From Bacteroidales bacterium (lineage in GTDB: Bacteria; Bacteroidota; Bacteroidia; Bacteroidales; JBGRPZ01): DNA of 64,000 nt. The notes under the pieces are model-generated. The model ran no database searches. It was not told the DNA's origin and worked only from the letters and a program-made list of their open reading frames with translations. Numbering within the stretch: position 1 is the first letter of the stretch; each line of letters opens with the position of its first letter. Both the position numbers and the translations under genes were made by a program. Positions 1-34,834 of the stretch are shown one piece after another. The DNA is taken from NCBI GenBank assembly GCA_041725955.1, contig JBGRQE010000011.1:348-64347 (forward strand), written 5' to 3'.

Positions 1-175
1 TTTTCATAGAAACATTCCATTTTCGGAAATATTTACGACTATAACAATCAAAACAATAATCCATAAGCCAATAGACATAGGTAAACCAGGATATGTTATA
101 TTTTATTTACGCTATCGGATAAATTTTATAAAATCATCCGCTTTTAAATAAAAATAAAAGATAACAAGGGTATAT

Positions 176-1735
176 TTACTCTTTTTTGATGACGGCGTTA
201 TTAAAAGATGAAGTCTTTTTCTTTTTAAAACAGAGAATTAATCCTGAAATAAATATAAAAACACAACTCAATCCTAATAATGGAACTATAAGAATATAGA
301 ACTTACCTAAAATAAATTGAAAGATACGCCCTGTATGAATTTCTAAAGCAAGGTTCCATAGAGACATTTTAGATTCATCAGATATTTTAGATGGCATTAT
401 TAATTCATTTGCTTCACCTCTCTTTATGCAGATTGCACCTTTATTATAATCAATATAAAACAATCCGGTTTTATTATCTCCAATTAATCCAACTGCCATA
501 TTTTTTCCTACAGGAGGACCTTTTTTCTGTACCTTGGGAGGTATACCAGAAAAATAATCTAAGACATAATCTTCTTCATTTGGTTCCCAAATATATAAAC
601 CTTGAAAAGAGCCAACCACAAGTCTATTTTCGAAATCCTTAGCGAGAACATTTATACCCATAACACTTATTGGAGGTTGTTCTTTTACCAAAATTGGCTT
701 ATCACTGAAATCTGATTTAAACTTATAAATCCCATTTGTTGTGCCCAACAAAATCAAATCAGACTCTTTGTCATAAAATATCTTTCGAATATTATCATAA
801 TAAGGGCTAGTATTATCTAAAACACTTCCTGGAATTTTATTTATCTTCTTTTCGGCAATAGGAATCAAAAGAGGAGGTCGAAGAAACATTCCTGTAACGG
901 ATACAATCAAAAGGAAAACAGCTAAATAAAGACCAATCTTTTTATGATATTTAAAATTCCACTTAAATCTCTTTATACATGCATCTTTCTTCTCTGCTTT
1001 CTTTTTTATTCGCTTTGGCAACCACCAAATTAAAATTCCACTAAAACAGAAGAAAAGTAAACTTAATCCAATTAAATCTACAAAGATCCGTCCCCAAAAG
1101 CCAAATAATGCACCACTATGAATCAACCAGATAGTTTTAAATAAAGAAACTTTTTTTAAATCTTGGTCATTTACTAATAAGGTGATCTTTTTTGAGGCTA
1201 ATAACCTATCATTCAAATCTATTTGAAATATATTTGAGCGGGAAGCAACAAATAAAAAATTATCTTTAATAGCTAAGTCAACAATCCTTAATTCATCATT
1301 TGCCCCTAAACAGAATAATTCCCACGGAGCACCCAATGACGTTTTATGAAATAAGCCAAAATTTGTCGCAGCAAAAAGAGATTCTTTATATTTTTTAATG
1401 GAATAGATTTTTCTACTATCACTTCCTTTGGGTAAACCATCATTAAAAGAATGAAATTCTGAAAAGGAGTTGTTTGTTAGAAAACATCCTTCTTCTCCAT
1501 AAAGAATTAATTGCTCTGAATTTATTCGTAAACCATCGCGCAGGCCAGCTTGATTCCACGAATTCATCTTATAATTGGAAGGCAAGTAACTACGAGGTAT
1601 ATCAACACCTCGAATTATATGACGATGATTTAATAATATGCCTGAAAGAACCCAAACAATAATAACACAAAATAAAGTTAAGGAAAACCATTTATGTATC
1701 CATTTGGCTTTCCTTTTTCTAATTTTCTTCTTCAA
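176..1735 (-). CDS. PepSY-associated TM-helix membrane protein (PiuB-like) with a large extracytoplasmic central region
   Basis: 519-aa ORF. Basic N-terminus plus TM helix (KWIHKWFSLTLFCVIIVWVLSGILLNHRH). Two further H-x-G + TM motifs (WLIHSGALFGFWGRIFVDLIGLSLL; LEIHTGRIFQFILGKFYILIV) are typical of the PepSY_TM family. The only possible start is TTG (caa on + strand at 1733-1735). It is the last co-directional gene of the hcp cluster, 26 nt after the upstream stop. Family assigned by recall only. Confidence 0.6.
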   Translation of the reverse strand: MKKKIRKRKAKWIHKWFSLTLFCVIIVWVLSGILLNHRHIIRGVDIPRSYLPSNYKMNSWNQAGLRDGLRINSEQLILYGEEGCFLTNNSFSEFHSFNDGLPKGSDSRKIYSIKKYKESLFAATNFGLFHKTSLGAPWELFCLGANDELRIVDLAIKDNFLFVASRSNIFQIDLNDRLLASKKITLLVNDQDLKKVSLFKTIWLIHSGALFGFWGRIFVDLIGLSLLFFCFSGILIWWLPKRIKKKAEKKDACIKRFKWNFKYHKKIGLYLAVFLLIVSVTGMFLRPPLLIPIAEKKINKIPGSVLDNTSPYYDNIRKIFYDKESDLILLGTTNGIYKFKSDFSDKPILVKEQPPISVMGINVLAKDFENRLVVGSFQGLYIWEPNEEDYVLDYFSGIPPKVQKKGPPVGKNMAVGLIGDNKTGLFYIDYNKGAICIKRGEANELIMPSKISDESKMSLWNLALEIHTGRIFQFILGKFYILIVPLLGLSCVFIFISGLILCFKKKKTSSFNNAVIKKE

Positions 1736-1761
1736 AACAAAAAATAATTGCCCAAAATAAA

Positions 1762-2010
1762 TTAATAAGCTTTCCCAGCTGCCATAACATTTGCAGGATC
1801 AAAGGCATGACATGGTGTTACTCCATAAACCATATCACAATTTGGACAGTGCTTTTCAAAAGTATCCATCAGAAAGTTAATTCCACAATCTTCACACTCC
1901 AAATCAAATGGCATTGGTAAAAATTGCTCATTAAACCCCATTCTTCTGAGTTTATCTACTATTTCCTTTCCATTGTCAAATTGGCCTGAACAACCTTCAT
2001 GTGAAACCAT
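1762..2010 (-). CDS. Small Cys-rich zinc-ribbon protein, function unknown (hcp-cluster member)
   Basis: 82-aa ORF with an ATG start. Two CxxC pairs (CEDCG ... HCPNCD) form a classical 4-Cys zinc ribbon, and there are two extra Cys. An AGGAGG-like sequence lies just upstream of the ATG. Co-directional with its neighbours, with 64-nt and 26-nt gaps. Confidence 0.6.
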   Translation of the reverse strand: MVSHEGCSGQFDNGKEIVDKLRRMGFNEQFLPMPFDLECEDCGINFLMDTFEKHCPNCDMVYGVTPCHAFDPANVMAAGKAY

Positions 2011-2074
2011 TTTCTTTCCTCCTATTTTTGATTACTATTATATAAATATTAACCGTTATTTTTAAGTAAACCCA

Positions 2075-3094
2075 TTATAGGTTTGATTCATTTAAACGCT
2101 CACCAGTCCTTAATAGTGTACGTAATCTTTGAATATATTCATCTGTTTTTTCAAGCTCCTTCAAAAGCTTTTTCTCTTCAGCGGTTGTTTTTATTACTTT
2201 ATGAATTCCTCCATTTTTTATAACAATACGCTTATCTCCCATCAAAGCAAGTATTGGATCGTGAGTTGCCATCAACACAATTTTTTCCTCACCTGTCAAT
2301 AAATTCAAAGCTTGCTTACGATCAATACCAGCATTTTCAATCTCATCAATTAATACTACTGGTGATTTACTTAAAATAGCAGTATCGGCAATCATCAAAG
2401 CTCTTGATTGTCCTCCTGATAATGAAGTAATGGGTCTTGTTGCATCAAATTTTTCTCCAGCAAGATTATTGGCAGCAATAATTATTTTTTCAATAACTTC
2501 CTCTTTATTGGAGATCATTCTACTTTCGGCATGCAAATCTAAAAATTCCTCAACGGATAAATCCATAACAAAGTTCATATTCTGAGACAGTTGAGCTACC
2601 AATTTCTGTCCGGCTGAAAATCTCCATTTTAAATCAGGAACCACATCATTAATTAGAATACTTCTAGAGGTAGGCGTATCTTTTTGGGCAACCCATTCTA
2701 TATCGCCTAACAGTCTGCTTTTTCCAGAACCTGTAGGCCCTACAATACAAACAATTTCACTTTGTAAAATTTCAAGAGACTCAAAATTCTCTGGATTTCC
2801 AGATTTATCAGTACCAGGCAGAATAGTCAGTGATTTTACATGATTACCATCACTTTCTCCCAAAAATTCTAGCATCTGATTTATATAATCCACCATTGAA
2901 GAAAGAATTCTTTCAGAATCAATAGCTTTATCTTCTCTTTCTTCTTCGTCTATTAATGCAATTGCCTGTTCTATAGTTCGATCTTCGTTGCCCTTAACTT
3001 CTAAAACATGATTATCAAAAAAAGATAATAAGAAAGGGTATTGACCTAATAACTCATTAAAAGTTGCTTCTTTTATATCATTTATTCTTATCAT
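2075..3094 (-). CDS. Soluble ABC-type ATPase with ~100-aa N-terminal extension; no cognate permease encoded nearby
   Basis: 339 aa. Walker A GPTGSGKS, ABC signature LSGGQSR, Walker B VVLIDEIE, H-loop ATHD. The N-terminal ~100 aa (ELLGQYPFLLSFFDNHVLEV...) tentatively resembles a Cys-less DUF1858-type domain. The start overlaps the upstream GTPase gene by 17 nt, suggesting translational coupling. Confidence 0.8.
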   Translation of the reverse strand: MIRINDIKEATFNELLGQYPFLLSFFDNHVLEVKGNEDRTIEQAIALIDEEEREDKAIDSERILSSMVDYINQMLEFLGESDGNHVKSLTILPGTDKSGNPENFESLEILQSEIVCIVGPTGSGKSRLLGDIEWVAQKDTPTSRSILINDVVPDLKWRFSAGQKLVAQLSQNMNFVMDLSVEEFLDLHAESRMISNKEEVIEKIIIAANNLAGEKFDATRPITSLSGGQSRALMIADTAILSKSPVVLIDEIENAGIDRKQALNLLTGEEKIVLMATHDPILALMGDKRIVIKNGGIHKVIKTTAEEKKLLKELEKTDEYIQRLRTLLRTGERLNESNL

Positions 3095-3788
3095 GATCCT
3101 TATCTATTTTCATCTTTCTTACATTACCCATTTGATAAGATTCTCCAATGCGAGTTTCCCCCAAACAATATGAACATAATGCTGAAGGCATTGGATACCG
3201 AAGTTTTTCTCCTTGTAAACTTTTTAATTTTTTATCACCATCATACATAAGAGTCGTTAATTCAAACGCCCCTTGTCCTGTTAAACCATTAACATTTAAT
3301 ATAACAGCTTTGGGATTCACCAAATTTACTCTGGAAGAAAAAACTTCTCTTTCTGCTTGACTTACAATATCACCCTTTGTAATAACACATATATCTGCAG
3401 TCTTGAGCATTGGCCCGATTTTTTTAGGAGTATTTACTCCACTTAAATTATCGATGACACAAACTGCCAATATATTATTTATGTATGGAGAACAACGATT
3501 GCATAAGCCTGCACTTTCGGTAATTAGTAAATCTAAGTTCTCTTTTATTCCCCACTGCACTACTTCTTCAATATTTGAAACAAAATAATGATCGGGACAT
3601 AATGATCCAGATAAACCTTTCTTCACCTTAACTTTAGCCTTTTCATACAGTAAATCATCATCGGTATGAAGACAATCAAACTTAACCACTCCCACTTCTA
3701 ATTTTCTTGCTCTAAAAGACTCTATAGTTTTTAGAATCACAGATGTTTTACCTGAAGAAGGAGGCCCTGAAACAGTTACAAGATTCAT
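3078..3788 (-). CDS. P-loop GTPase of the G3E (UreG/HypB/CobW-like) metallochaperone type
   Basis: 236 aa. Walker A GPPSSGKT, Walker B-like LLITESAG (compare ESGG/ENVG of UreG/HypB), NKxD-like TKGD. Cys/His motifs CPDH (reminiscent of the UreG CPH motif), CNRC and CSYC. The start lies 3 nt after the stop of the upstream gene. Confidence 0.7.
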   Translation of the reverse strand: MNLVTVSGPPSSGKTSVILKTIESFRARKLEVGVVKFDCLHTDDDLLYEKAKVKVKKGLSGSLCPDHYFVSNIEEVVQWGIKENLDLLITESAGLCNRCSPYINNILAVCVIDNLSGVNTPKKIGPMLKTADICVITKGDIVSQAEREVFSSRVNLVNPKAVILNVNGLTGQGAFELTTLMYDGDKKLKSLQGEKLRYPMPSALCSYCLGETRIGESYQMGNVRKMKIDKDHDKNK

Positions 3789-3791
3789 GCT

Positions 3792-5012
3792 CTATTCTTT
3801 TAATCCCTGATTAAAAATATTTTCACACTTATTTACCAATGCTTGAATATTATTCTGATAGATAAAATCCCAGCCTATCCAATTATATTTCTTTGTTGGC
3901 TCAATTTTATTATCTACTTCAGGATGAGTAGAAGGAAACAAACCTTGGTGACTCATTAACTCACCAACAGTTTTTGAACAAAACAAATCAATAATTTCAC
4001 TAAATCCTTTTTTATTTGAAGATTTTGTAAGCATAAATATAGGACTTACAATTGCACCATCTTCGGGCCATATAGCCTTCATTACACCTCCTTCTTTAAC
4101 CATCTTTGTAAAGAAATAAGGCATAATAGTAATTGCAGGGCGAGCACCTTGCTTTTTATGCGATTTAACCATTTGTGATGGGTGCATATCTACCATTAAT
4201 GAACGACCTAATTTTTTTAGAGACTCCTCTCCATATAATTTATATAGGCTTAATAATATGGCGTTAAATAAGTCAAAATCACCGATTGGAAGACTTACAC
4301 TTTTTTCATATTCAGGAGATAAAATATCTTGCCAGGTTTTAGGAATCTTACGTCCATTAAGTTCCTTTTCATTTACAAGAAAGACAGCAGGAACTACACC
4401 TAATACAGAATAATGATTCATAGGATCGCGCAGATCAATATAATCATTCTGAAAATCAGGATTAAGATTTTTATAAGGCATTTGTGCAGAAAAAACATTA
4501 TCGCTTTTAAATCTACCTAATTTAGCCTCATCAAAAAACATATCAAATCCTGCGGAAATATACATATCGGCAATATCTTCTGCTTTTTTTGATGGATTCC
4601 AATCATCTTTCAACCAATCTACTCCCATAGAAGCAGCCTGGAGTTCAAAACGAACTTTATTTCCTTTTGCGATAAACTTTTCTGTAAACTGCTCAACCTG
4701 TTCACTTAAAGGAAGACGTATTGGACATGGAAGTAAGCCCTTAACCAGAATTTCGTCTTTATCCTTATGCCCTGTTTTTAATAACTCTGCATGATCATCA
4801 ATAGCACTCTCTAATAATGAAACAAAAGAAGATAAGTCGATCTGACGAAATCCTGCAGCAACCTCCAAGGTAATTTTTGCACCAAAAAGTTTTCGCTTTT
4901 CAGGATCTTCCATCTGAGGAAAACCATTAGCTTTAAAAACAGTTATTGTTTCAGGAAACTTCTCTGTAATTTCCAATAAAGTATCTGTAGTTTGAAATCG
5001 TTTATCTGTCAT
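3792..5012 (-). CDS. DUF1858 (hybrid-cluster-protein-associated domain) fused to a periplasmic-binding-protein-like fold; apparently cytoplasmic
   Basis: 406 aa. The N-terminal ~70 aa (TLLEITEKFPETITVFKANGF...ITLEVAAGFRQIDLSSFVSLLESA) matches my recollection of DUF1858. The remainder (LLPCPIRLPL...) resembles iron-type ABC substrate-binding proteins. No signal peptide or lipobox. Sits directly downstream of hcp (70-nt gap). Confidence 0.65.
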   Translation of the reverse strand: MTDKRFQTTDTLLEITEKFPETITVFKANGFPQMEDPEKRKLFGAKITLEVAAGFRQIDLSSFVSLLESAIDDHAELLKTGHKDKDEILVKGLLPCPIRLPLSEQVEQFTEKFIAKGNKVRFELQAASMGVDWLKDDWNPSKKAEDIADMYISAGFDMFFDEAKLGRFKSDNVFSAQMPYKNLNPDFQNDYIDLRDPMNHYSVLGVVPAVFLVNEKELNGRKIPKTWQDILSPEYEKSVSLPIGDFDLFNAILLSLYKLYGEESLKKLGRSLMVDMHPSQMVKSHKKQGARPAITIMPYFFTKMVKEGGVMKAIWPEDGAIVSPIFMLTKSSNKKGFSEIIDLFCSKTVGELMSHQGLFPSTHPEVDNKIEPTKKYNWIGWDFIYQNNIQALVNKCENIFNQGLKE

Positions 5013-5082
5013 ATTTTATCTTAAATAAAAGAGAAATGGAGAAAGAAACAAAAGCTCTACTTCCTCCATTTCTTTATATTAA

Positions 5083-6729
5083 CTAGGCCATAAACATTTT
5101 AATGTCTTCATCTACTTCTCCAATACCAGCAATACCAAAGTTATCTACTAGAACTTTAGCTACATTTGGTGATAAGAAAGCAGGTAAAGTTGGACCTAAA
5201 TGAATATTTTTCACACCTAGATACAAAAGAGCCAGCAATACAATCACAGCCTTTTGCTCATACCATGCAATATTATAAGCAATTGGTAACTCATTTATAT
5301 CATTCAATTCAAATACTTCTTTTAGCTTTAAAGCAATAACAGCTAATGAATAAGAATCATTGCATTGCCCTGCATCAAGAACTCTAGGAATACCGCCTAT
5401 ATCACCTAGTGGTAACTTATTATATCGGTATTTTGCACATCCAGCAGTTAATATTACAGTATCTTTAGGTAATTTTGAAGCAAACTCTTCGTAATAATCA
5501 CGATCTTTCATACGACCATCACATCCTGCCATTACAAAAAACTTCTTAATAGCACCAGTTTTAACTGCATCAACAACCTTATCAGCCAATTCAATTACCT
5601 GATTATGAGCAAAACCTCCAACAATTTCACCAGTTTCTATCTCCTTTGGAGATTGGCATTTTTTAGCCAATTCAATAATAGCTGAAAAATCTTTCATCTC
5701 GCCATCCTTACGTTCCGGAATATGAGGATAGTTTGGAAATCCTGCAGCTCCTGTAGTAAAAACTTTATCAGCATAAGAAGCACTCTTTTTAGGCGGCACT
5801 ATACAGTTAGTAGTAAACAAAATAGGTCCGTTAAAGCTTTCAAACTCTTCCTTTTGTTTCCACCATGCATTACCATAGTTTCCTACTAAATGCTTATATT
5901 TTTTTAACTGTGGGTAGTAATGTGCTGGTAACATCTCACTATGAGTATATACATCTACTCCAGTCCCATCAGTTTGCTTTAGTAAATCCTCAATGTCTCT
6001 TAAATCATGACCACTTACAAGAATACCAGGATTATTTTTTACTCCTAAATTAACTTTGGTAATTTCAGGATTGCCATATCTAGCAGTATGAGCAGCATCT
6101 AAAAGAGCCATAACCTCAACACCAAACTTACCTGCTTCTAATACTAAAGCAACTAACTCGTCTGCACCTAAATCATCATTGGTTGTAGAAACAAGAGCTT
6201 TTTGCATAAAAGCATAAATGTCATCTTTATTTGATCCTAGATTTGAGGCATGCTCAGCATAAGCAGCCAATCCTTTTACTCCATAAATCAACAATTCTCT
6301 TAAAGAGCGAATATCTTCATTTTCAGTAAGGAGAATCCCTACTTCAACTGCTTTAGTAGCAAAATCTTTTTCTGAGCCTACCCATGTAGCGCATTCTGGT
6401 ATATTTTGCAAATCGCAATTATTTTCTTTGGCTTGATTTGCAAGGTTTTCTTTTAAAGCAAGTGCTTTATTTATTTTTTCTACAAATGCTTTATCATCAA
6501 AATTGGCATTGGTAATTGTAGCAAAAAGAGATTCCATAACAAAATGGTCAGTCTCAGGAGAAGAAACTCCCTTTTCACGTAACTTGGAAGAATAAACAGA
6601 AATTCCTCTTAGGGTATACAACAATAAATCTTGAAGATTACTAACATCTTCATTTTTTCCACAAACACCTTTAATGGTACATCCAATTCCTTTAGAGGCT
6701 TCTTGACATTGATAGCAAAACATACTCAT
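5083..6729 (-). CDS. hcp: Hybrid cluster protein (hydroxylamine/NO reductase)
   Basis: 548 aa. Diagnostic N-terminal Cys motif [23 protein letters not shown], and length and overall sequence typical of class I/III Hcp. ATG start confirmed at 6727-6729 (cat on + strand). Confidence 0.95.
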
Positions 6730-6804
6730 TATAAAAACCTTTTTAAATGTGAACTATTCTTCTTTTAACTTGAGCAATACAGTTTATGTTTTAAGAATTT
6801 AGGT

Positions 6805-6820
6805 ATTGCATTGCGCAAAT
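6805..6820. promoter_or_regulatory. Candidate operator: imperfect dyad TTGCA-ttg-CGCAA upstream of hcp
   Basis: Sequence attgcattgcgcaaat lies ~75-90 nt upstream of the hcp ATG. It shares the TATTGCA / TGCAA half-site with the dyad upstream of the Rrf2 gene (7407-7430). No canonical TAnnTTTG box was found upstream of hcp. Confidence 0.2.
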
Positions 6821-6943
6821 TAAATATCTTTTATCGTAAGAAACAAGAATTAAGGTAATAAATTACCTAAATATAATTGTTTAAATACAGTTTAAATAAC
6901 AAGACTTACGCTAATTTGTTTGATTTACAACACTTTTACCCAA

Positions 6944-7342
6944 TCACAAGAAAGATTCTAAGGTCTGACTAGCAAGATATTCTTTGTACTGTAGTGTCAT
7001 CTTGCTCGTAATATTATTCATTATACACTTCTCAAAAGGACAAATTTGCTTATCTAATGGACAGGCATTAATCTCTATTTTTCCCTCAATAGCTTCATAT
7101 ATTTCTAGAAGAGTAACTTCACTAGCATTTTTTTTTAAGAAAAAACCACCTGAAGGCCCCCGCAAAGAGTTCACAATATTTTCTTTAACCAATCTTTGAA
7201 AAACTTTTGCTACGTGGTGTCTTGAACTTCCTGTTTTTTCGGCAATATGAGTTACATTCATCATTTCTTTGGATCTTGCAACCAAGATCATTCCGTGTAA
7301 AGCAATTGAAGCCGCCTCTGACAAGGTAAATATTTTTGCCAT
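6944..7342 (-). CDS. Rrf2-family transcriptional regulator (NsrR/IscR-like, probable Fe-S sensor)
   Basis: 132 aa. The N-terminal wHTH is typical of Rrf2 (ALHGMILVARS...THIAEKTGSSRHHVAKVFQRLVKENIV). A C-terminal three-Cys cluster (CPLDKQICPFEKC) sits where IscR/NsrR ligate their cluster. Same strand as hcp and immediately upstream of it. Confidence 0.85.
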   Translation of the reverse strand: MAKIFTLSEAASIALHGMILVARSKEMMNVTHIAEKTGSSRHHVAKVFQRLVKENIVNSLRGPSGGFFLKKNASEVTLLEIYEAIEGKIEINACPLDKQICPFEKCIMNNITSKMTLQYKEYLASQTLESFL

Positions 7343-7406
7343 TTTGTATATAAAGTATTTAAATGCCTAATTTGTAATAAAAAAAATAAATCTGCCAACA
7401 AAACGA

Positions 7407-7430
7407 TACTGCAATTAAGATATTGCAATA
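7407..7430. promoter_or_regulatory. Candidate Rrf2 operator: inverted repeat TACTGCAAT-N6-ATTGCAATA
   Basis: 9-bp arms with 8/9 complementary (7407-7415 vs 7422-7430). Located in the divergent spacer between the Rrf2 gene (start 7342) and the His-rich transporter gene (start 7637). Confidence 0.3.
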
Positions 7431-7612
7431 CTTAAATGTATGAATTATGAGGTACCTACTATTTTTTATAGAAAATACTCAAATCAAAAAGTAAAAACTT
7501 CGACAAATTAGAGAATTAATTCTAACTTCCATTATATGTTTAAAGAAAAATATACAATCACTTAAATTTACCAACATTTAGGTATATATTTCAAAAAGCA
7601 AAAGATAAAAAT

Positions 7613-7620
7613 TATTTTTG
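7613..7620 (+). promoter_or_regulatory. Bacteroidetes-type -7 promoter box TATTTTTG
   Basis: Exact match to TAnnTTTG, 17 nt upstream of the ATG at 7637. No clear -33 TTTG. Confidence 0.35.
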
Positions 7621-7636
7621 CAGAAAATCACTCTCT

Positions 7637-8842
7637 ATGTTACCGGAAATTATACAACAAACAATAATCATTACAGCCTTTGTCCTGGTTATGATGCTTC
7701 TAATTGAGTTTCTCAATGTGCAATCAAAAGGAAAATGGTTTACCAGTTTAAGTAAAAAACCATTTTTACAAAACATTACAGGCATTATTTTAGGTGGTTT
7801 GCCTGGATGTCTGGGATCTTATACTGCAGTATCACTTTATTCACACAAAAGCATAAATTTTGCTGCTCTGTTAACAACAATGATTGTAACAACAGGAGAT
7901 GAAGCATTTCTTATGTTATCCTTAATTCCAAATAGTTATTTAAAGCTAACCGTAATCTTAATTCTCATAGCTATAATTGTAAGTTTTATTTTTGTAAAAC
8001 TCAATATTTCGTTTAAACGAAAAGTTTCAAATCAACATTCGTTTGAAATTCATCATGAACATCATGACCCTATAAACTGGAAAAAAATAAAAACCTTTAA
8101 ACAAATTAAAAACATTAGCTTTCCCAGAGCTATACTTTTAATTGCCCTAGCTTTATTTTTATGGGGAATAATTAGTGGTGGAATTCAACATACACATAAT
8201 TTCTTCTCTGCAAATGATTCAGCAACAAATCAACAGAAGGAAATAATTAATACTCACCAAGAGCACAATCATGCTGTAGAACATAATCACTCTACAGAGC
8301 ACAATCATTCATTAAATGATAAGAACTTAGCAATTGAAAATAATACTCTCGAAACTCATAATATTCCTCACGAACATCAGCATTCTAAATGGAATTGGTT
8401 TTCTATAACTCTACTTTGTATCTCTGTATTTGCTTTTGTTTTAATATTTATTGTTCCAGATCATTTCCTTGAAGAACATTTATGGAATCATATAATTAAA
8501 AAGCATGCCTTGAAAATTTTTCTATGGACATTAATTATTCTTATAGCTATTCATTATTTAGAACAACACTTAGAGCTAAGTTCATGGATTAGTAATAATT
8601 ACTATAAAGTACTTATTCTAGCCCTATTGATTGGAATCATACCCGAATCTGGCCCCCACTACTTCTTTATATTATTATTTTCTCAAGGCAGTATTCCTTT
8701 TTCCATATTACTTGCTAATTCCATAGTTCAAGATGGACATGGTTCTTTACCCCTTCTGGCTGAATCTAAGATAGGATTTATTCAGGTTAAAGGAATTAAA
8801 TTTTGTATTGGACTAATTTTAGGAATAATCGGTGGATTATAA
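7637..8842 (+). CDS. Polytopic membrane protein, putative 10-TM heavy-metal/Mn exporter (ArsP_2-like) with His-rich cytoplasmic loop
   Basis: 401 aa in two hydrophobic halves, separated by a hydrophilic His-rich loop (HEHHDPINW ... HQEHNHAVEHNHSTEHNHS ... HNIPHEHQHSKW). Motifs GGLPGCLGSY, TTGDEAF, IPESGPHYFF and QDGHGSLPLLAES recall the ArsP_2 / putative manganese transporter family. Assignment is from memory. Confidence 0.5.
   Translation: MLPEIIQQTIIITAFVLVMMLLIEFLNVQSKGKWFTSLSKKPFLQNITGIILGGLPGCLGSYTAVSLYSHKSINFAALLTTMIVTTGDEAFLMLSLIPNSYLKLTVILILIAIIVSFIFVKLNISFKRKVSNQHSFEIHHEHHDPINWKKIKTFKQIKNISFPRAILLIALALFLWGIISGGIQHTHNFFSANDSATNQQKEIINTHQEHNHAVEHNHSTEHNHSLNDKNLAIENNTLETHNIPHEHQHSKWNWFSITLLCISVFAFVLIFIVPDHFLEEHLWNHIIKKHALKIFLWTLIILIAIHYLEQHLELSSWISNNYYKVLILALLIGIIPESGPHYFFILLFSQGSIPFSILLANSIVQDGHGSLPLLAESKIGFIQVKGIKFCIGLILGIIGGL
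8261..8314 (+). repeat. In-frame 3 x 18-bp tandem repeat encoding (E-H-N-H-x-x)3
   Basis: The units are gagcacaatcatgctgta / gaacataatcactctaca / gagcacaatcattcatta, read directly. They are in frame with the 7637 ORF (offset 624 nt). Confidence 0.85.
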
Positions 8843-8992
8843 AATCCATAATTAAAAGGAGAGAAAAAATTACTGAAAAATATACAAGACAATAGAATAT
8901 CAAGTTATTTAGATAAGCTACTGAGCTACAGCCATATTATCCAAAAAAATAATATCTTTAGAAAAGAAAACTAAAGATCTAAAATTGTAAAT

Positions 8993-9880
8993 ATGAAAAG
9001 CATTTTCATTCCTGTAGATTTTTCAGAACAATCTCTCCTTTCCTGCAAATTTGCCTTTCATGCATTTGGAAATGAAGAAATAAAAATTACATTCTTTCAC
9101 TCCTACTTCGATCAGTTAGCTTTAGCTGAAAGTCATCTAACTACCGACCTTGAGCCTAATATGATTGGTTTGATGGATGAAAGAATTTTCACAGATTTGA
9201 AGGAAAATAGTGAAAAAGAGCTTCAAAATTTAAAAGATGAAACTCTACTCATGGCAAAAGCCATGAATCTGAAAAACATAAGCATAGAAACAAAAACAGA
9301 AGGTGGTCTTCCTTTTAATGAAGTTTTACACAATTTAAAAAAAGGAAATTACGACTTAATCATTGTAGGAAGTAAAAAAGATCATCAAAATCGAGTTGGT
9401 GGAAATAATTTCCAAGCTCGGTTAATCAATAAAAGTATGATTCCTGTTGTTGTTGTTCCTCCTGAATATACTGGTGAATCGGTGAGCAATATAATTTACC
9501 TTACCGAATTCAATATTGTGGATATTGAAAATATTTACCTACTTGATAAATTCTTTCCTAATCAAGAACAAAATATTCATATAATACACTTTGTAGAAGT
9601 GAAAACAGAGAATTCTGATGAAAAAATGAATAGTCTAAAACATGCCTTTATCGAAAATAAAATCAATACGAGATTAAAATTTTCAATTCAGAATGAATCT
9701 AATGTAATTGGATGTCTAGAACAATTTATCGCAGAAGAAAAGGTCTCTTTTATTGCTTTTATGCCTCATAAAAATAGCTTTGGCCATTTGTTTGAACATA
9801 AATTAGTTAATAAAAAGAAACTACTACACTTAAGTGTACCAATCATATCCATTCCTATGGATAAAAAAGCATCCAATTAA
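8993..9880 (+). CDS. Universal stress protein, tandem UspA domains
   Basis: 295 aa. Both halves start with the USP-like strand (IFIPVDFSEQS ; IIYLTEFNIVD), with DLIIVGSKK and PVVVVP motifs. Confidence 0.7.
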   Translation: MKSIFIPVDFSEQSLLSCKFAFHAFGNEEIKITFFHSYFDQLALAESHLTTDLEPNMIGLMDERIFTDLKENSEKELQNLKDETLLMAKAMNLKNISIETKTEGGLPFNEVLHNLKKGNYDLIIVGSKKDHQNRVGGNNFQARLINKSMIPVVVVPPEYTGESVSNIIYLTEFNIVDIENIYLLDKFFPNQEQNIHIIHFVEVKTENSDEKMNSLKHAFIENKINTRLKFSIQNESNVIGCLEQFIAEEKVSFIAFMPHKNSFGHLFEHKLVNKKKLLHLSVPIISIPMDKKASN

Positions 9881-28057: not shown

Positions 28058-28870
28058 ATGGGAAAAGTAATAGCTATAGCTAATCAAAAAGGTGGAGTAG
28101 GAAAGACAACTACCTCAATTAATCTGAGTGCAGGTTTTGCTGTATTAGAATACAAAACCCTTATCATTGATGCCGATCCTCAAGCAAATGCCACTTCTGG
28201 TGTTGGGTTTGATCCTAAAAACATCAATGCAAGTATATATGAATGTATTCTTGATCAAATTTCACCTCATAAAGTAATTTCACCTACGAAAACTCCTTTT
28301 CTAGATATTCTGCCTGCCCATATAGATTTGGTTGGTGCAGAAATAGAAATGATTAATATGAAGAATCGTGAAAAGGTTATGTATGAAGTTATATGCAAAA
28401 TAAAAGATGCATACGACTTTATCATCATAGACTGTTCCCCTTCACTTGGTCTTATCACTGTCAATGCTCTTACGGCTGCGGATTCTGTAATTATCCCTGT
28501 TCAATGTGAGTATTTTGCATTAGAAGGTCTTGGAAAATTACTAAACACAATAAAAATTGTACAAACACGTCTTAACAAGCATCTAGATATCGAAGGCATT
28601 CTATTAACTATGTTTGATCGTAGACTACGCCTCTCAAAACAAGTAGTTGAGGAAGTAAGAACTCATTTTCAAAACATGGTTTTTAAAACCTTAATAAATC
28701 GTAATACACGATTAAGTGAAGCCCCAAGCTTTGGTGAAACAATTATTATGCATGATGCCTCGAGTACTGGTGCTATTAACTATTTGAATCTAGCACGAGA
28801 GATTATTTGTAATAATGGACTTTCGAAAAGAAAGAAAAGAAATAAAAAGCTGACTGAAGATGAAATCTAA
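28058..28870 (+). CDS. parA: Chromosome partitioning ATPase ParA/Soj
   Basis: 270 aa. Deviant Walker A KGGVGKTTT, plus IIDADPQANAT and IIDCSPSLG. Confidence 0.93.
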   Translation: MGKVIAIANQKGGVGKTTTSINLSAGFAVLEYKTLIIDADPQANATSGVGFDPKNINASIYECILDQISPHKVISPTKTPFLDILPAHIDLVGAEIEMINMKNREKVMYEVICKIKDAYDFIIIDCSPSLGLITVNALTAADSVIIPVQCEYFALEGLGKLLNTIKIVQTRLNKHLDIEGILLTMFDRRLRLSKQVVEEVRTHFQNMVFKTLINRNTRLSEAPSFGETIIMHDASSTGAINYLNLAREIICNNGLSKRKKRNKKLTEDEI

Positions 28871-29738
28871 AAAACACGCTCTGGGCAGAGGTTTGCAAGC
28901 TATACTAGAAAGCCCTCAAACAGATATTACCTCACGAGATATCTCAGGAGAGTTTGTTGTTGGTGCAATAGCAGAAATTTCAATACAAAAAATTGAACCC
29001 AACCCTTTTCAGCCACGAACAGAATTTGATCAGAAAATGATAGAAGAGCTCGCTGAATCTATAAAAGAGCAAGGAATTATTCAACCTATTACTGTGCGAA
29101 AATTAGGTTTTGATCAATATCAACTTATCTCTGGCGAAAGAAGACTTAGAGCAAGTAATCATGCACAACTAACAACTATCCCAGCTTATATAAGAGTTGC
29201 AAATGACGAGCAAATGCTCGAAATGGCCTTAATAGAAAACATTCATCGTCAAAACCTCAATCCAATAGAAATAGCAATAAGCTATCAAAGGTTACTTGAG
29301 GAATGTAACTTAACACAAGAAGAATTAAGCCTTAAAGTAGGTAAAAACAGAAGTACAGTATCAAACTTTATTCGACTTCTAAAACTCCCTCCTAACATAC
29401 AAATTGCCTTAAAAAACAATGATATAAGCATGGGACATGCCAGAGCTTTAATTAATATTGAAGACAAGAATTTACAAAATAAAATATTTAGACTAATTAT
29501 TCTAAAGAAACTTAGTGTTAGACAAACTGAAGAAATTATAAAGAATAATAATCAACAAAAAGTTAAAAAAAACAACATAGAACAAAACTCACAAGACATT
29601 GTCTACCAAAAAGATTTAACCAACCTATTTAATACTAAAGTCGAACTAAAGCGAAGTGTAAAAGGAAACGGTAAACTTGTAATTAATTTTAAATCGGAAA
29701 ATGATTTAGAAAGAATTTTAACTTTGCTCGAAAAATAA
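28860..29738 (+). CDS. parB: Chromosome partitioning protein ParB/Spo0J
   Basis: 292 aa. PNPFQPR and LISGERRLRAS ParB boxes, and an HTH (QEELSLKVGKNRSTVSNFIRLL). Overlaps parA by 11 nt. Confidence 0.93.
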   Translation: MKSKKHALGRGLQAILESPQTDITSRDISGEFVVGAIAEISIQKIEPNPFQPRTEFDQKMIEELAESIKEQGIIQPITVRKLGFDQYQLISGERRLRASNHAQLTTIPAYIRVANDEQMLEMALIENIHRQNLNPIEIAISYQRLLEECNLTQEELSLKVGKNRSTVSNFIRLLKLPPNIQIALKNNDISMGHARALINIEDKNLQNKIFRLIILKKLSVRQTEEIIKNNNQQKVKKNNIEQNSQDIVYQKDLTNLFNTKVELKRSVKGNGKLVINFKSENDLERILTLLEK

Positions 29739-31237: not shown

Positions 31238-32722
31238 ATGCTCGTATACATACTAATTTCCCCAATTTTATTTTGTTATATTGCATTTTTCTCTAAAATA
31301 GTCTTTGAAACCAATAAACTTCCAAAATGGTGGGCTTTAATTCCATATTGGAATATATTTCAGTGGACCAGATTAATCAATTTACCTCCAATAATTAGTT
31401 TACTAGCTTTTGTTCCATTCATCAATTTACTTTTCTTTATTTTTCTTGTCTACAAAATCTTAGAAAAAAACAACTTTAATAATCTTTGGGAAAACATTAT
31501 CGCATTACTACTCCCTTTTATCTTCTTCCCTCTTTACTTTAAAAATAAACTTAAAATAAAACCTGACTCTTCTGTTTCTGCATACTCAAAACCAATTTGG
31601 AGATCATGGCTACATACTTTTATTTTTGCAATTTTATCTGCAATTGTAATCCGACAATTTATTGTTAGCCCTTATATAATTTCATCTTCTTCTATGGAAG
31701 GCACCTTGCTCACAGGAGATTATACAATAGTATCAAAATTAAATTATGGGCCTAGAATTCCTCTACCATATTTAAAAAATGATAAAACCAAAGCAGGGAA
31801 CAATAGAAATAGATATTTTAGTTTTATACGCCCTAGTGGCCTCTCAAAAATAAGAAGAGGAGATATTTTAGTTTTCAACTTTCCAGAAGGAGATACATTA
31901 ATAAAAAATCAAAAAGGATATTACTCATATTATGATCTAATTCGAAACATTGGCAGGAAAACAGTACTGTCAGATCCTCAGGCTTTTGGATATCCTGAAT
32001 ATATACCTATTAACAAACGTCAAAATTTTGTAAAGAGATGTGTAGGTTTACCTGGAGATACATTTTCAATTAAAGAAAAACAAACATATGTTAATTCTCT
32101 AAAATTTCCACTCCCATCCAAAGCTCAATTTTTATATTTTGTAACCACAAATGGAGACAAAATTTCACCAGCGTTCTTTCAAAATAATAATGCAAATAAA
32201 TACCCTAATGAAGTAGGTGTTAATCAACAAGCTATTTGGATGTCGCCTAAAGCCAAAGAAAAATTGGAAAATCTTTCCATAATTACAAAAATAAAAGAAA
32301 GACAAGAGCATAAGAATTGGTGGAATAAAGAGATATTTCCGCATACGGAAAATTATCCCTGGAATTCTGATAATTATGGACCTATAGTAATTCCATACAA
32401 AGGAATGAAAATAAAAATCACAAAGTCAAATCTACATTTATACAAAAGAATAATTATTCATTATGAACACAATGATTTAGATTATATAAACAATGAATTT
32501 TACATAAATCAAATAAAAACATCAACCTATAAAATAAAACAAAATTACTTCTGGGTAATGGGTGATAATAGAGATAATAGCATAGATAGCCGATTCTGGG
32601 GATTTGTACCTGAAGATCATATTATAGGAAAAGCCATTTATGTTACACTATCAGTAAATACTGAAAATAAAATATTATCGTCAAAATTTAGATGGAAGAA
32701 TTCTTTTCAATTTTTAAAATAA
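31238..32722 (+). CDS. lepB: Signal peptidase I, paralogue 1, with extended N-terminal membrane domain
   Basis: 494 aa. Catalytic Ser box SSSMEGTL, Lys box KRCVGLPGD, box E GDNRDNSIDSRFWGFVP. N-terminal multi-TM region with a WWALIPYWNIFQW motif. Confidence 0.9.
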   Translation: MLVYILISPILFCYIAFFSKIVFETNKLPKWWALIPYWNIFQWTRLINLPPIISLLAFVPFINLLFFIFLVYKILEKNNFNNLWENIIALLLPFIFFPLYFKNKLKIKPDSSVSAYSKPIWRSWLHTFIFAILSAIVIRQFIVSPYIISSSSMEGTLLTGDYTIVSKLNYGPRIPLPYLKNDKTKAGNNRNRYFSFIRPSGLSKIRRGDILVFNFPEGDTLIKNQKGYYSYYDLIRNIGRKTVLSDPQAFGYPEYIPINKRQNFVKRCVGLPGDTFSIKEKQTYVNSLKFPLPSKAQFLYFVTTNGDKISPAFFQNNNANKYPNEVGVNQQAIWMSPKAKEKLENLSIITKIKERQEHKNWWNKEIFPHTENYPWNSDNYGPIVIPYKGMKIKITKSNLHLYKRIIIHYEHNDLDYINNEFYINQIKTSTYKIKQNYFWVMGDNRDNSIDSRFWGFVPEDHIIGKAIYVTLSVNTENKILSSKFRWKNSFQFLK

Positions 32723-32946
32723 AGGTATGATGACTTTTTTAGTACACGAAAATTATATTTCATCGACTCCTTAATTCTAAATTTATTAAATAATGACTCT
32801 ATCAAAAGTATATAAGCCCGAACAAAGGCTATATCGATTAAGCATTTCACTCTGTCTGCATACTATAAATAAGCATACTACATATAGGAGGTAGCCTTAC
32901 CTTACTTTTGGATCAAGGCAGGTGATGATTGCTCTTTACTCCAAAA

Positions 32947-33084
32947 GGTTTTCATCAAATACCTAGGAGGTTTTCATCAAACACCTAGGAGGTTTTCACC
33001 AAATATCTAGGAGGTTTTTATCAAATATCTAGGAGGTTTCCACCAAATATCTAGGAGGTTTTTACCAAATATCTAGGAGGTTTA
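32947..33084. repeat. Six near-identical 22-bp tandem units (plus partial seventh), locus 2 of the repeat family
   Basis: Units start at 32947, 32969, 32991, 33013, 33035 and 33057 (ggttttcatcaaatacctagga and variants with 1-4 substitutions). Decayed, roughly 22-bp-phased copies flank the core (TAGGAGG at 32885; AAGG motifs at 33095, 33116, 33139). Confidence 0.9.
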
Positions 33085-33319
33085 GGTCTAATTCAAGGTA
33101 AGTGCCGAGGAATTTAAGGGTAGGAATGGTAATGATTTAAGGTAAAAGTAATGACGATTGTTAGTAGGGCTTAAAGGCGTTTAAAGTATAGTAAAAATTA
33201 TTGACGTGTACTTAGTAACTTTTTATTGACTCAATTCATACAATAAACTAGCTATTTTAACAACTTTATCAATATTGATTTGTATTTTCGCAATTCAAAA
33301 CCATAATGACAGAAGTTTT

Positions 33320-34834
33320 ATGCTAGAATTTGTTATATTATTACCAGCTTTATTCACTTTTCCAGCAATTTTCGCATGGAATTTATTTGTAAAAGCGGGC
33401 ATACCAGGATGGAAAACTATAATCCCTTTTTACAATCTTTTTGTTTGGTTAAGACTTATTGAAAAACCTCTTTGGTGGTATATCATACTGATAATTCCTT
33501 TTATCAATATTTTTGTCTTGATGCTAATGGTAATTGAATTATTAAAATGTTACAAAAAACATTCTTTATTAGACCAAGCATTGGCTGTTATTTTTCCTTT
33601 TTTCTATTTACCATGGTTAGGTTTTCAAGAAGAAACTTTTACTGCTCCAAAGGACCAGGAAAAAATTAAAAAAGGTTTTGTTCGTGACTGGGTCGATACA
33701 ATTTTATTTGCAGCAATTGCAGCAATGATAATTAGAACATTTTTGGCAGAGGCGTATACAATACCAACCTCATCGATGGAAAGTTCTTTACTTGTAGGAG
33801 ATTACCTATTTGTAAGTAAATTAGCTTATGGTCCAAAAGTACCTAATACTCCTTTATCATTTCCATTTGTTCACCATACACTACCTCTGTCAACAGAAAA
33901 AAAATCATATTTAGATTGGATTGAATTGCCAGACTATAGATTCCCTGGTTTTGGTAATGTAAAAAAAGGAGATGCTGTTGTTTTTAATTATCCTGCCGGA
34001 GATACAGTTTCCACCAAATTTCAATCAAACATATCTTATTATGACCTTATTGAAAAATACGGTAGAAAAAAAGTATTGAGTAACCCTGCTACTTTCGGAG
34101 AAATCGTTTATCGTCCTATCGACAAACGTGAAAATTATATAAAAAGATGCATTGGAGGCCCTGGCGATTCTCTATACTTAAAAGATAAAATTGTTTATAT
34201 AAACGGGAAAAAAGCTCCAATACCAGAAAACTCTCAAGCACTTTATTGGATTAAAACTAATGGAACACCTATTTCCAATTACTATTTCGATCAATTAAAT
34301 GTTTCTGAATACCAAGAGTTTCTTGGTAAAGACAATGTTATGTGGGCTCAATTAACAAGGGCAGCGAAAGATAAAATTGAAAAACTGCCAAATGTGTTAG
34401 AAGTTCAAGTGAATTTAAGACAAGCAGGAACTCCTAATACAGATGTATTTCCAAACGATATAAATTATTCTTGGAGTATGGATAATTTTGGTCCTATATA
34501 CATCCCTAAAAAGGGAGCAACGATAAAATTATCTCAAAAAAACATAGCACTGTATAGAAGAGTTATTCATGCATATGAAGGAAATTCTTTAGAAGAAAAG
34601 GATGGTAAATTCTTTATTAATGGTAAGGAAACAGATTCTTATACTTTTAAAATGAATTATTACTGGATGATGGGCGATAATCGTGATAATAGTGCAGATT
34701 CACGAGTATGGGGTTATGTACCAGAAAATCATATTGTAGGAAAAGCCTTCTTTGTATGGTTATCATTAGACAAGAACAAAACACTATTCGATGGTAAAAT
34801 ACGTTGGAATAAATTGTTCCGTGTAATTAGATAA
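33320..34834 (+). CDS. lepB: Signal peptidase I, paralogue 2
   Basis: SSMESSLLVGD, KRCIGGPGD and GDNRDNSADSRVWGYVP motifs. N-terminal GWKTIIPFYNLFVW membrane domain. I prefer the ATG at 33320 (MLEFVILL) over the track start at 33275. Confidence 0.9.
   Translation: MLEFVILLPALFTFPAIFAWNLFVKAGIPGWKTIIPFYNLFVWLRLIEKPLWWYIILIIPFINIFVLMLMVIELLKCYKKHSLLDQALAVIFPFFYLPWLGFQEETFTAPKDQEKIKKGFVRDWVDTILFAAIAAMIIRTFLAEAYTIPTSSMESSLLVGDYLFVSKLAYGPKVPNTPLSFPFVHHTLPLSTEKKSYLDWIELPDYRFPGFGNVKKGDAVVFNYPAGDTVSTKFQSNISYYDLIEKYGRKKVLSNPATFGEIVYRPIDKRENYIKRCIGGPGDSLYLKDKIVYINGKKAPIPENSQALYWIKTNGTPISNYYFDQLNVSEYQEFLGKDNVMWAQLTRAAKDKIEKLPNVLEVQVNLRQAGTPNTDVFPNDINYSWSMDNFGPIYIPKKGATIKLSQKNIALYRRVIHAYEGNSLEEKDGKFFINGKETDSYTFKMNYYWMMGDNRDNSADSRVWGYVPENHIVGKAFFVWLSLDKNKTLFDGKIRWNKLFRVIR

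Follow-up and report, generated by a model that had tools for sequence, protein, structure and literature searches.

In anaerobes, oral and gut pathogens among them, the hybrid-cluster protein (Hcp) is a key determinant under nitrosative stress. The question raised by the locus described here is what purpose is served by the genes that follow hcp in a 64,000-nucleotide (nt) stretch of Bacteroidales DNA (contig JBGRQE010000011.1, positions 348 to 64,347; hereafter the window, with positions counted from its first letter), which encode an apparent substrate-binding protein (SBP), a GTPase and an ATP-binding cassette (ABC) ATPase. A preliminary description of the locus treated six co-directional genes, including hcp, as a single unit encoding a maturation, repair or iron-delivery machine dedicated to the Hcp metallocentre. 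The analysis reported here identified a conserved unit of four genes, which encode an SBP-like protein with a DUF1858 domain, a G3E-family GTPase, an ABC ATPase with a DUF1858-like domain, and a small MHxGC/zinc-ribbon protein. It is proposed, with a probability of roughly 0.55, that this module is a nitric oxide (NO) stress-induced, nucleoside triphosphate (NTP)-driven machine for the delivery or repair of iron or iron-sulfur (Fe-S) centres, with Hcp as its prime client.

A conserved four-gene module

Open reading frame (ORF) calling reproduced exactly the coordinates and intergenic gaps that the preliminary description had given for the six minus-strand genes, and searches of the window proteins with the hidden Markov models of Pfam and NCBIfam upheld its domain calls, the 82-amino-acid (aa) protein being without a Pfam family. 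The first gene is hcp (5083-6729; NF003658 866 bits and TIGR01703 769 bits, each above its cut-off), the product of which has the class I N-terminal cysteine pattern, CxxC-x8-C-x5-C. It is followed by the genes for the SBP-like protein (3792-5012; Pfam DUF1858 38.1 bits, SBP_bac_6 253 bits), the G3E GTPase (3078-3788; Pfam cobW 45.6 bits), the soluble ABC ATPase (2075-3094; ABC_tran, PF00005, 53.7 bits at aa 106-251) and the 82-aa Cys/His, or Zn-ribbon, protein (1762-2010; recognised by alignment of homologues, with an ATG start and an AGGAGG ribosome-binding site), and finally by a gene for a PepSY_TM membrane protein (176-1735; PF03929 79.8 bits), which has a TTG start. The successive intergenic gaps are 70, 3, -17, 64 and 26 nt. 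An Rrf2-family regulator had also been noted upstream, and its gene was found on the hcp strand, 214 nt upstream of hcp (6944-7342; Pfam Rrf2 95.8 bits, TIGR00738 94.9 bits). All six genes are therefore real, but the conserved unit comprises four of them, without hcp and PepSY_TM.

The distribution of the module was examined by scanning one genome per GTDB species for the GTPase, which gave at least 503 confirmed matches; the best 80 together with the window make up 81 genome loci, of which 46 are well flanked, having 3 kb or more of sequence to either side. A metagenome census comprised 80 loci anchored on the Zn-ribbon gene, 40 of them with adequate flanks. Individual loci are referred to by L numbers. 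The module is spread over at least 500 species and about 10 phyla, those of the best 80 being Bacteroidota, Bacillota, Spirochaetota, Fusobacteriota, Cloacimonadota, Fermentibacterota, Acidobacteriota/Aminicenantes, Kapabacteria and others, and carriers include the culturable genera Fusobacterium, Treponema, Marinifilum and Vallitalea. Identity of the GTPase across these best 80 loci is 72-88%, and among 6,490 homologues at cluster level the top 120, from many phyla, are all at least 76% identical; few accessory proteins are conserved as strongly as this GTPase, which shows about 78% identity across phyla.

The order SBP-GTPase-ABC-Zn-ribbon is colinear in 56 of the 81 genome loci, the remainder being mostly incomplete at contig ends, and the Zn-ribbon gene directly follows the module in 39 of the 40 well-flanked metagenome loci. 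The sole exception (L151) has the order Rrf2-cupin-Zn-ribbon-hcp, with no SBP, GTPase or ABC gene within 8 kb. An SBP-GTPase-ABC arrangement, with or without the Zn-ribbon gene, that recurs across about 10 phyla is far from chance. By comparison, the PepSY_TM gene, previously counted with the other genes, adjoins the module only in the window, L061, L068, L069 and L071, distantly in L001, and in similar metagenome loci; it is confined to Bacteroidales relatives and represents a lineage-specific addition. Full-text literature searches (DUF1858, G3E/CobW, Hcp maturation, HcpR regulon, Fusobacterium) found no published description of the module, and there is no specific NCBIfam model for any of its four proteins. 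Database labels for its parts are 'ABC transporter substrate-binding protein', 'ABC-type Fe3+ transport substrate-binding protein', 'GTP-binding protein' and 'hypothetical'.

Some individual loci merit comment. The closest relative of the window, L001 (JBGRPZ010000007.1), is binned as 'Hyphomicrobiales bacterium'; it has the same order of Usp, ArsP_2, Rrf2, hcp, module and PepSY_TM genes, with 65-88% protein identity, and is probably a mis-binned Bacteroidales contig. Four distinct GTPase sequences (P0038, P0044, P0055 and P0067) are all named Vallitalea guaymasensis, which suggests either that a genome carries several paralogues of the module or that strains differ. A cupin gene (112 aa) lies between Rrf2 and the module in loci of the Cloacimonadota type (L022, L046, L055, L077, L092, L131, L135, L148 and L151).

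Location and domain structure of the module proteins

Neither the operon nor the rest of the 64-kb window contains an ABC permease gene, and none was found in the 81 genome loci or the 80 metagenome loci; the multi-transmembrane (TM) ORFs of the window encode AbgT, a flippase, an MFS protein and signal peptidases. The SBP-like protein and 30 homologues have no signal peptide, lipobox or TM segment, the sequences opening directly with the helices of DUF1858, and the maximum hydropathy within the first 40 aa is 0.14. The cytoplasmic placement of this protein, and with it the earlier statement that the module is not a transporter, accordingly stood, there being neither a permease that recurs in the 161 loci nor an exported SBP. 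By these sequence criteria the module is cytoplasmic and permease-less.

The GTPase exceeds the cut-off of Pfam PF02492 (45.6 vs 20.7 bits), and the motifs GPPSSGKT, ITESAG, TKGD, CPDH, CNRC and CSYC attributed to it are present and retained by its homologues. Walker A (GPPSSGKT) and the Walker B-like ITESAG are invariant, while the guanine-specificity position NKxD is occupied by a nearly invariant variant, TKGD (T137, K138, G139 and D140). The full signature reads Walker A, C64-P-D-H67, E91xxGLC96xRC99xP, TKGD and C205xxC208, of which Walker A and the Cys/His elements (C64-P-D-H67, ExxGLC96xRC99xP and C205xxC208) are invariant among sequences with 31-56% identity. The CPDH motif (C64-P-D-H67) aligns with the Ni-binding CPH of UreG structures 4hi0 and 5xkt, UreG and HypB being the best solved relatives, and the alignment bears out the previous assignment to the metal-chaperone type of G3E GTPase, with a UreG/HypB-type Cys/His metal site. 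Nevertheless, scores lie below the equivalog cut-offs for both HypB (TIGR00073, 45 vs 121.2 bits) and UreG (TIGR00101, 28.3 vs 204.2 bits). An exhaustive HMMER search returned a compact family of 522 representatives, 81 of them at E<=1e-30. Judged by its Cys/His signature, which differs from those of HypB, UreG and CobW, this is a new G3E subfamily.

The ABC protein retains the catalytic motifs (Walker A GPTGSGKS, LSGGQS, LIDEIE and THD) and has a C-terminal helix, and its closest solved nucleotide-binding domains (NBDs) are of the MacB/MJ0796/Ecf type (E about 1e-10). Its N-terminal domain (aa 1 to ~100; nt 2795-3094) was aligned in register with DUF1858 by hhalign (P = 3.7e-4), the full-length profile giving a weak match (E = 0.13); DUF1858 is matched by 7 of 29 homologues of this domain (best E 3.8e-4) and is the sole recurrent Pfam family.

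In the SBP-like protein, DUF1858 (aa 10-64) precedes a cluster-D SBP fold (aa ~88-406; SBP_bac_6 match at aa 146-387). The presence of an N-terminal DUF1858 domain, as previously reported, is supported by a score above the gathering threshold of PF08984 (38.1 vs 32.2 bits), by matches in all 31 homologues and by a match of the profile to PDB entry 2fi0 (E 3.9e-4); the fusion of DUF1858 to the SBP fold is kept in 120 of the 120 top homologues. Its previous classification was not supported. The 'redox-disulfide' subtype, TIGR03980, is contradicted by the lack of any Cys in aa 1-80, with weak matches in 4 of 31 homologues (best E 0.013), and the proposed likeness to RIC/ScdA/YtfE found no counterpart in the 31 SBP-like homologues, none of which matched ScdA_N or hemerythrin at E<=1; searches with Pfam gave no match to these domains in the other module proteins either.

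An AlphaFold2 model of the SBP-like protein (pLDDT 83.9) was matched by Foldseek to P5PA, AfuA, FbpA and FutA (structures 1y4t, 2o69, 8c4y and 4r73) with E of 1e-11 to 1e-10, TM-scores of 0.61-0.67 and 12-17% identity. With FbpA, AfuA and FutA the protein shares the common two-lobe cluster-D fold and the SBP_bac_6 match, but it differs in being cytoplasmic, in its DUF1858 N-terminus, in its low identity to them and in having no permease partner. Its invariant residues include GLLPC96P, H277, H355, C396 and several Asp; the iron site of those proteins is Tyr-Tyr-His-Glu, and the invariant set holds a single Tyr, Y201.

HypA has an N-terminal Met-His-Glu motif that binds Ni, plus a zinc site. 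The small proteins of the module form a family of uniform size, ~80 aa, with the consensus MH[ED]GC...CxxC-x12-CxxC...TPCH over 40 aligned homologues; the window protein starts MVSHEGC, placing the His at residue 4 as opposed to residue 2. This HypA-like N-terminal motif had been missed in the preliminary description. A few members of the family reach Pfam HypA (PF01155), for which a score of 16.1 bits vs a gathering score of 28.9 was obtained.

Regulation of the module

The HcpR2 operator GTAACnnnnGTTAC was defined upstream of hcp by Rodionov et al. (2005; PMC1274295), and the corresponding regulon reconstruction lists only hcp for Fusobacterium and Treponema. In 1.22 Mb of sequence from the loci considered here, 46 perfect copies of the operator were observed vs 0.98 expected (maximum of 3 in 50 shuffles). 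In 31 loci the first gene of the module has a perfect copy 47-184 nt upstream of it, and 35 of 74 testable loci have a copy with no more than one mismatch; the count includes the GTPase gene of Treponema. In 13 loci the operator occurs separately upstream of hcp. In Fusobacterium vincentii the operator GTAACATTTGTTAC is found ~95 nt before SBP-GTPase-ABC, and the same sequence lies between hcp and a divergent Zn-ribbon gene. The identical operators of these split loci would place the module in the NO-stress regulon as a transcription unit of its own, from which one gene is able to migrate to hcp. On this operator evidence, which had previously gone unnoticed, the module is a new and widespread member of the HcpR2 regulon. 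The operator of the published regulon, GTAACnnnnGTTAC, stands before both hcp and the module; the window differs in that Rrf2 replaces HcpR2.

Indeed, GTAACnnnnGTTAC is not present in the promoter region in this window, which instead has the Rrf2 gene and a palindrome, AGGTAATTTATTACCT (AGGTA-N6-TACCT; 6853-6868, minus strand), in the hcp promoter. This candidate Rrf2 operator, the function of which is presumed, also precedes genes for Rrf2, cupin, Hcp or SBP proteins in L001, L018, L046, L053, L055, L069 and L077; perfect copies number 6 vs 1.24 expected, every one of them in the promoters of Rrf2-linked loci. An Rrf2 gene is located upstream of the module in 11 of the 81 genome loci and in several metagenome loci. 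The window Rrf2 protein has three clustered cysteines (C-x6-C-x4-C) and is predicted to control the locus as an Fe-S-based sensor. The module and hcp are thus, as far as the predicted operators and regulators indicate, in a nitrosative-stress regulon, governed by HcpR2 in most phyla and by an Fe-S Rrf2 protein in the window.

Other palindromes were noted upstream of the module in particular lineages. In Proteiniclasticum (L032, L039, L042, L064 and L057) this is GGTATC-N4-GATACC, with an adjacent Crp/Fnr gene; in L075 it is an HcpR1-type palindrome, TTGACnnnnGTCAA / TTGACCCAGGTCAA; and in Kapabacteria (L037 and L043) it is TTCGGAC-N6/7-GTCTGA. The occurrence of alternative palindromes with differing regulators suggests that regulator and operator co-vary.

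The 70-nt spacer between hcp and the SBP gene was found by folding to contain an 18-bp hairpin followed by a U-tract (5032-5073, minus strand; minimum free energy -21.8 kcal/mol, z = -2.4). A simple scan had found no minus-strand terminators, the hairpin having escaped since its loop exceeds 8 nt. An analogous GC hairpin with UUU is present in L001. The structure is probably an attenuator or terminator that sets expression of hcp above that of the module, in which case the 'one operon' may be hcp plus a read-through unit.

Association with hcp

Next, the gene-neighbourhood census proposed in the preliminary description was used to assess the link to hcp, which is by far the commonest non-regulatory neighbour of the module. 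An hcp gene is nearby in 23 of the 81 genome loci and in 17 of the 46 that are well flanked, in 14 of these 17 within 1 kb and on the same strand; the corresponding figure for well-flanked metagenome loci is 11 of 40. Adjacency of this order far exceeds the chance expectation of ~0.3 in 46 (<1%; our estimate, assuming a genome of 3 Mb with one copy of the gene), so that enrichment of hcp beside the module was borne out. At least three gene orders are represented, namely Rrf2-hcp-module (the window, L001 and L068), module-hcp (Firmicutes) and Rrf2-cupin-module-hcp (Cloacimonadota).

The claim that the module is dedicated to Hcp was not supported, since roughly two in three loci are without hcp next to the module, the module is served by an operator of its own, and hcp occurs in chromosome-sized records without the GTPase. 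In F. vincentii a distance of 1.1 Mb separates the module from hcp on a 2.1-Mb replicon, under the identical operators noted above, with the Zn-ribbon homologue beside hcp in divergent orientation. In the Marinifilaceae loci L004-L012 a flavodiiron-type protein (ODP/metallo-beta-lactamase plus flavodoxin) and a Crp/Fnr regulator are encoded ~5 kb upstream of the HcpR2-controlled module, and no hcp is present within 10 kb of the module. The F. vincentii record, NZ_CP084075.1 (L090 and L091), is listed in PLSDB as 'plasmid pSB055A' of strain SB055, but at 2.1 Mb it behaves as a chromosome; other chromosome-sized records filed as plasmids include several from E. coli, Vibrio and Burkholderia. Mobility of the module on plasmids was considered and rejected, this replicon being the single 'plasmid' match.

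The wider GTPase-ABC family

In-frame fusions of the GTPase to the ABC protein form two clusters (509 and 613 aa) represented on many independent contigs, which speaks for the two NTPases working as a single unit. Divergent relatives that lack both DUF1858 domains occur in two other contexts. In a nitrogenase-like branch (L081, 2724-11530; L086, 1510-10226; and L087), GTPase, ABC and SBP_bac_6 genes, sometimes with a GTPase-ABC fusion, have as neighbours genes for one NifH-like and two NifD/K-like (Oxidored_nitro) proteins and for a complete Peripla_BP_2/FecCD/ABC importer, with a Crp/Fnr gene adjoining in L086; full-text literature searches found no published pairing of nitrogenase-like genes with FecCD or CobW. 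In a Suf branch, ABC and GTPase genes are accompanied by one for a PF04060 'FeS' protein (~196 aa), followed in L083 (1001-7725) by sufB-sufC-sufD and ferritin; SUFBD genes were not found in the module loci themselves, sufBCD being present only downstream of this divergent relative. ABC-GTPase-PF04060 genes were also seen in L088 (7222-9303) and L089, within a glycosyltransferase/methyltransferase region that contains CHAP and SU10_adaptor (phage-like) genes.

Since the divergent relatives are without it, the DUF1858 pair looks like an adaptor specific to the NO-regulon branch. It is tentatively suggested, as a possibility that is on balance doubtful, that the GTPase-ABC pair is the core of an unrecognised ancient family of cytoplasmic two-NTPase systems for metallocluster insertion, in which the SBP and NBD of an importer have been re-purposed, with at least three branches: NO-stress/Hcp, having paired DUF1858 domains and a mini-HypA-like protein; nitrogenase-like; and Suf/ferritin.

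Proposed function and alternatives

The proposed role of the module in NO-stress-induced delivery or repair of iron or Fe-S centres draws on its composition, cytoplasmic location and synteny, its co-regulation with hcp, the fusion of its NTPases, and the links of relatives to Suf, ferritin and nitrogenase-like genes. Iron is the putative cargo and Hcp the putative client, and the order of hand-over is likewise conjectural. In outline, NO or nitrite would inactivate the Rrf2 regulator or activate HcpR, such that Hcp and the module are produced together. The cytoplasmic SBP-like protein, by descent a binding protein of the Fe3+/phosphosugar type, would act as a clamp that captures iron, or an iron-sulfur or iron-nitrosyl fragment, an iron-type cargo being favoured because of the class of the SBP fold and its invariant Cys, His and Asp residues. 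It might then dock on the ABC dimer via the paired DUF1858 domains, which would take the place of a permease, whereupon ATP turnover would load the cargo onto the GTPase at its Cys/His site, the GTPase being joined physically to the ABC protein. Finally, GTP hydrolysis, together with the small HypA-like Cys/His protein, would release the cargo into the client, primarily the hybrid and cubane clusters of Hcp and perhaps further Fe-S proteins that NO has damaged. A soluble ABC NBD that serves a cytoplasmic complex has parallels in SufC and in PhnK/PhnL of C-P lyase, and a relative of the module adjoins sufBCD/ferritin; unlike SufBCD, however, the module has no SufB/SufD-like scaffold, and its NBD has a DUF1858-like N-domain and is partnered by a G3E GTPase and an SBP fold. 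In its mode of action the module would resemble HypAB/UreG metallochaperones joined to a soluble ABC ATPase of the SufC kind. Of the machine envisaged in the preliminary description, assembly or repair of metallocentres fits the Suf, ferritin and nitrogenase-like contexts, but exclusive dedication to Hcp is unsupported. If the proposal is correct, regulons of the HcpR/NsrR type gain a member, the G3E family gains a subfamily and the ABC/SBP architecture a new use, and the maintenance of Hcp and Fe-S proteins under NO becomes testable in genetically tractable oral bacteria.

Several observations weigh against this proposal. Treponema, including the cultured T. putidum, has the GTPase and ABC genes alone, and the Zn-ribbon gene is missing from the module in some Firmicutes. 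The high identity across phyla may stem in part from horizontal transfer. The ABC N-domain, a feature that had earlier been missed, is on profile comparison only probably a second DUF1858-like domain. No Tyr pair is invariant in the SBP-like alignment, the iron ligands of FbpA being Tyr/Tyr/His/Glu, and the AlphaFold2 model of the Zn-ribbon protein (pLDDT 86) had no match to HypA or any other PDB fold, with no Foldseek match below E = 1.8, so that the HypA idea stays at the level of motifs. Adjacent hcp is, as noted, lacking from about two thirds of module loci. Moreover, no GTPase homologue (E<=1e-20) was found in some hcp-bearing, chromosome-sized records, among them those of E. coli, Acetoanaerobium noterae and Prevotella oral taxon 299, which indicates that the module is no universal Hcp maturase and that Hcp does not as a rule require it.

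The alternative that survives best, though itself regarded as unlikely, is that the module does not serve Hcp itself but conducts general salvage of iron and Fe-S centres under nitrosative stress, acting as a YtfE/RIC analogue that would extract iron from, or put it back into, many proteins, for example those with dinitrosyl-iron or damaged clusters, while Hcp merely removes the NO released. This would account for a module that has its own HcpR2 operator and is mostly unlinked to hcp, for relatives that adjoin SufBCD and ferritin, for the flavodiiron protein and cupin genes that neighbour the module in some phyla, and for the maturation of Hcp without the module in genomes of the E. coli type. 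It sits less well with the predominance of hcp among non-regulatory neighbours, with the finding that the Zn-ribbon gene, once outside the module, is beside hcp, and with the failure to detect a hemerythrin, ScdA_N or RIC domain. The YtfE/RIC/ScdA system, of the NsrR regulon, resembles the module in being co-regulated with hcp by an NO-responsive regulator and in its plausible role in the repair of iron centres, but the module is NTP-driven and built from other protein families, with no hemerythrin or ScdA_N match at E<=1.

A second alternative, considered improbable, is that the module is a HypAB/UreG-like Ni or Zn metallochaperone for another enzyme, or a buffer of thiolate Zn released by NO, its link to hcp being regulatory only. 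In parallel with HypA/HypB and UreE/UreG, the module comprises a G3E GTPase with a Cys/His site between Walker A and B and a small partner with, in the family consensus, Met-His-Glu/Asp and CxxC...CxxC. In favour of this reading, CPDH lines up with the CPH motif by which UreG binds Ni, the GTPase has HypB and UreG as its best solved relatives, the Zn-ribbon family consensus starts MH[ED] and has two CxxC motifs, with a few members reaching Pfam HypA, and in Bacteroidales the locus has a conserved, divergently oriented neighbour that encodes a His-rich ArsP_2 metal permease. However, the module GTPase has an additional CxRC and a C-terminal CxxC and falls far below the HypB and UreG cut-offs, and the small protein, at ~80 aa, has no HypA fold and in the window has its His at residue 4. 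The module also adds an ABC ATPase and an SBP-like protein, is NO-regulated and has no Ni enzyme near it, there being no recurrent hydrogenase, urease or carbon monoxide dehydrogenase in the 161 loci, and the contexts of the wider family are related to Fe-S.

SBP folds have often been adopted as sensor domains in the cytoplasm. The module might in principle be a signalling device of this kind, in which the SBP-like domain senses a small molecule and the NTPases modulate HcpR/Rrf2 or the activity of Hcp, and its genes do lie tightly beside those of regulators; this is nonetheless very improbable, given that the invariant multi-Cys/His signature of the GTPase and Zn-ribbon protein is typical of metal handling, that no DNA-binding or signalling output domain is present, and that the module occurs also in loci without an adjacent regulator. 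Lastly, a genuine ABC importer with its permease encoded elsewhere is largely refuted, for despite the SBP_bac_6 and ABC_tran domains, the concordant source annotations and the downstream PepSY_TM gene in Bacteroidales, no conserved permease exists in the 161 loci or the window, 31 aligned SBP-like sequences have an N-terminal DUF1858 in place of a signal peptide or lipobox, some lineages have the ABC protein as a fusion with the soluble GTPase, and the nitrogenase-like loci hold a complete FecCD importer beside the trio, with its own SBP and ATPase, so that the adjacent GTPase/ABC/SBP trio is not its energiser.

Other features of the window

Divergent from Rrf2, on the plus strand, are genes for a His-rich, ArsP_2-type metal permease with 10 TM segments (7637-8842; HEHHDP..., HNHAVEHNHSTEHNHS) and, beside it, a tandem-Usp protein (8993-9880). 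The pair is kept in L001, L068 and the metagenome loci L093, L119 and L128. Half-sites TACCTAAAT/ATTTAGGTA are present in the intergenic region shared by the Rrf2 and ArsP_2 genes, and hence the Rrf2 regulator may control both sides.

A search for Rfam leader RNAs in positions 1-9000 of the window returned a sole match, to REN-SRE (204-233, minus strand), inside the PepSY_TM gene; at 25.4 bits vs a threshold of 41 it is sub-threshold and almost certainly due to chance. GC skew was likewise set aside as a signal, as in the window it merely tracks gene strand. Among the remaining genes of the window are a ParA/ParB pair (28058-29738, plus strand), two tandem paralogous genes for DUF5684 plus signal-peptidase S26 proteins (31238-34834, plus strand), and two large ORFs, of 1,476 aa (43624-48054, plus strand) and 2,370 aa (56422-63534, minus strand).

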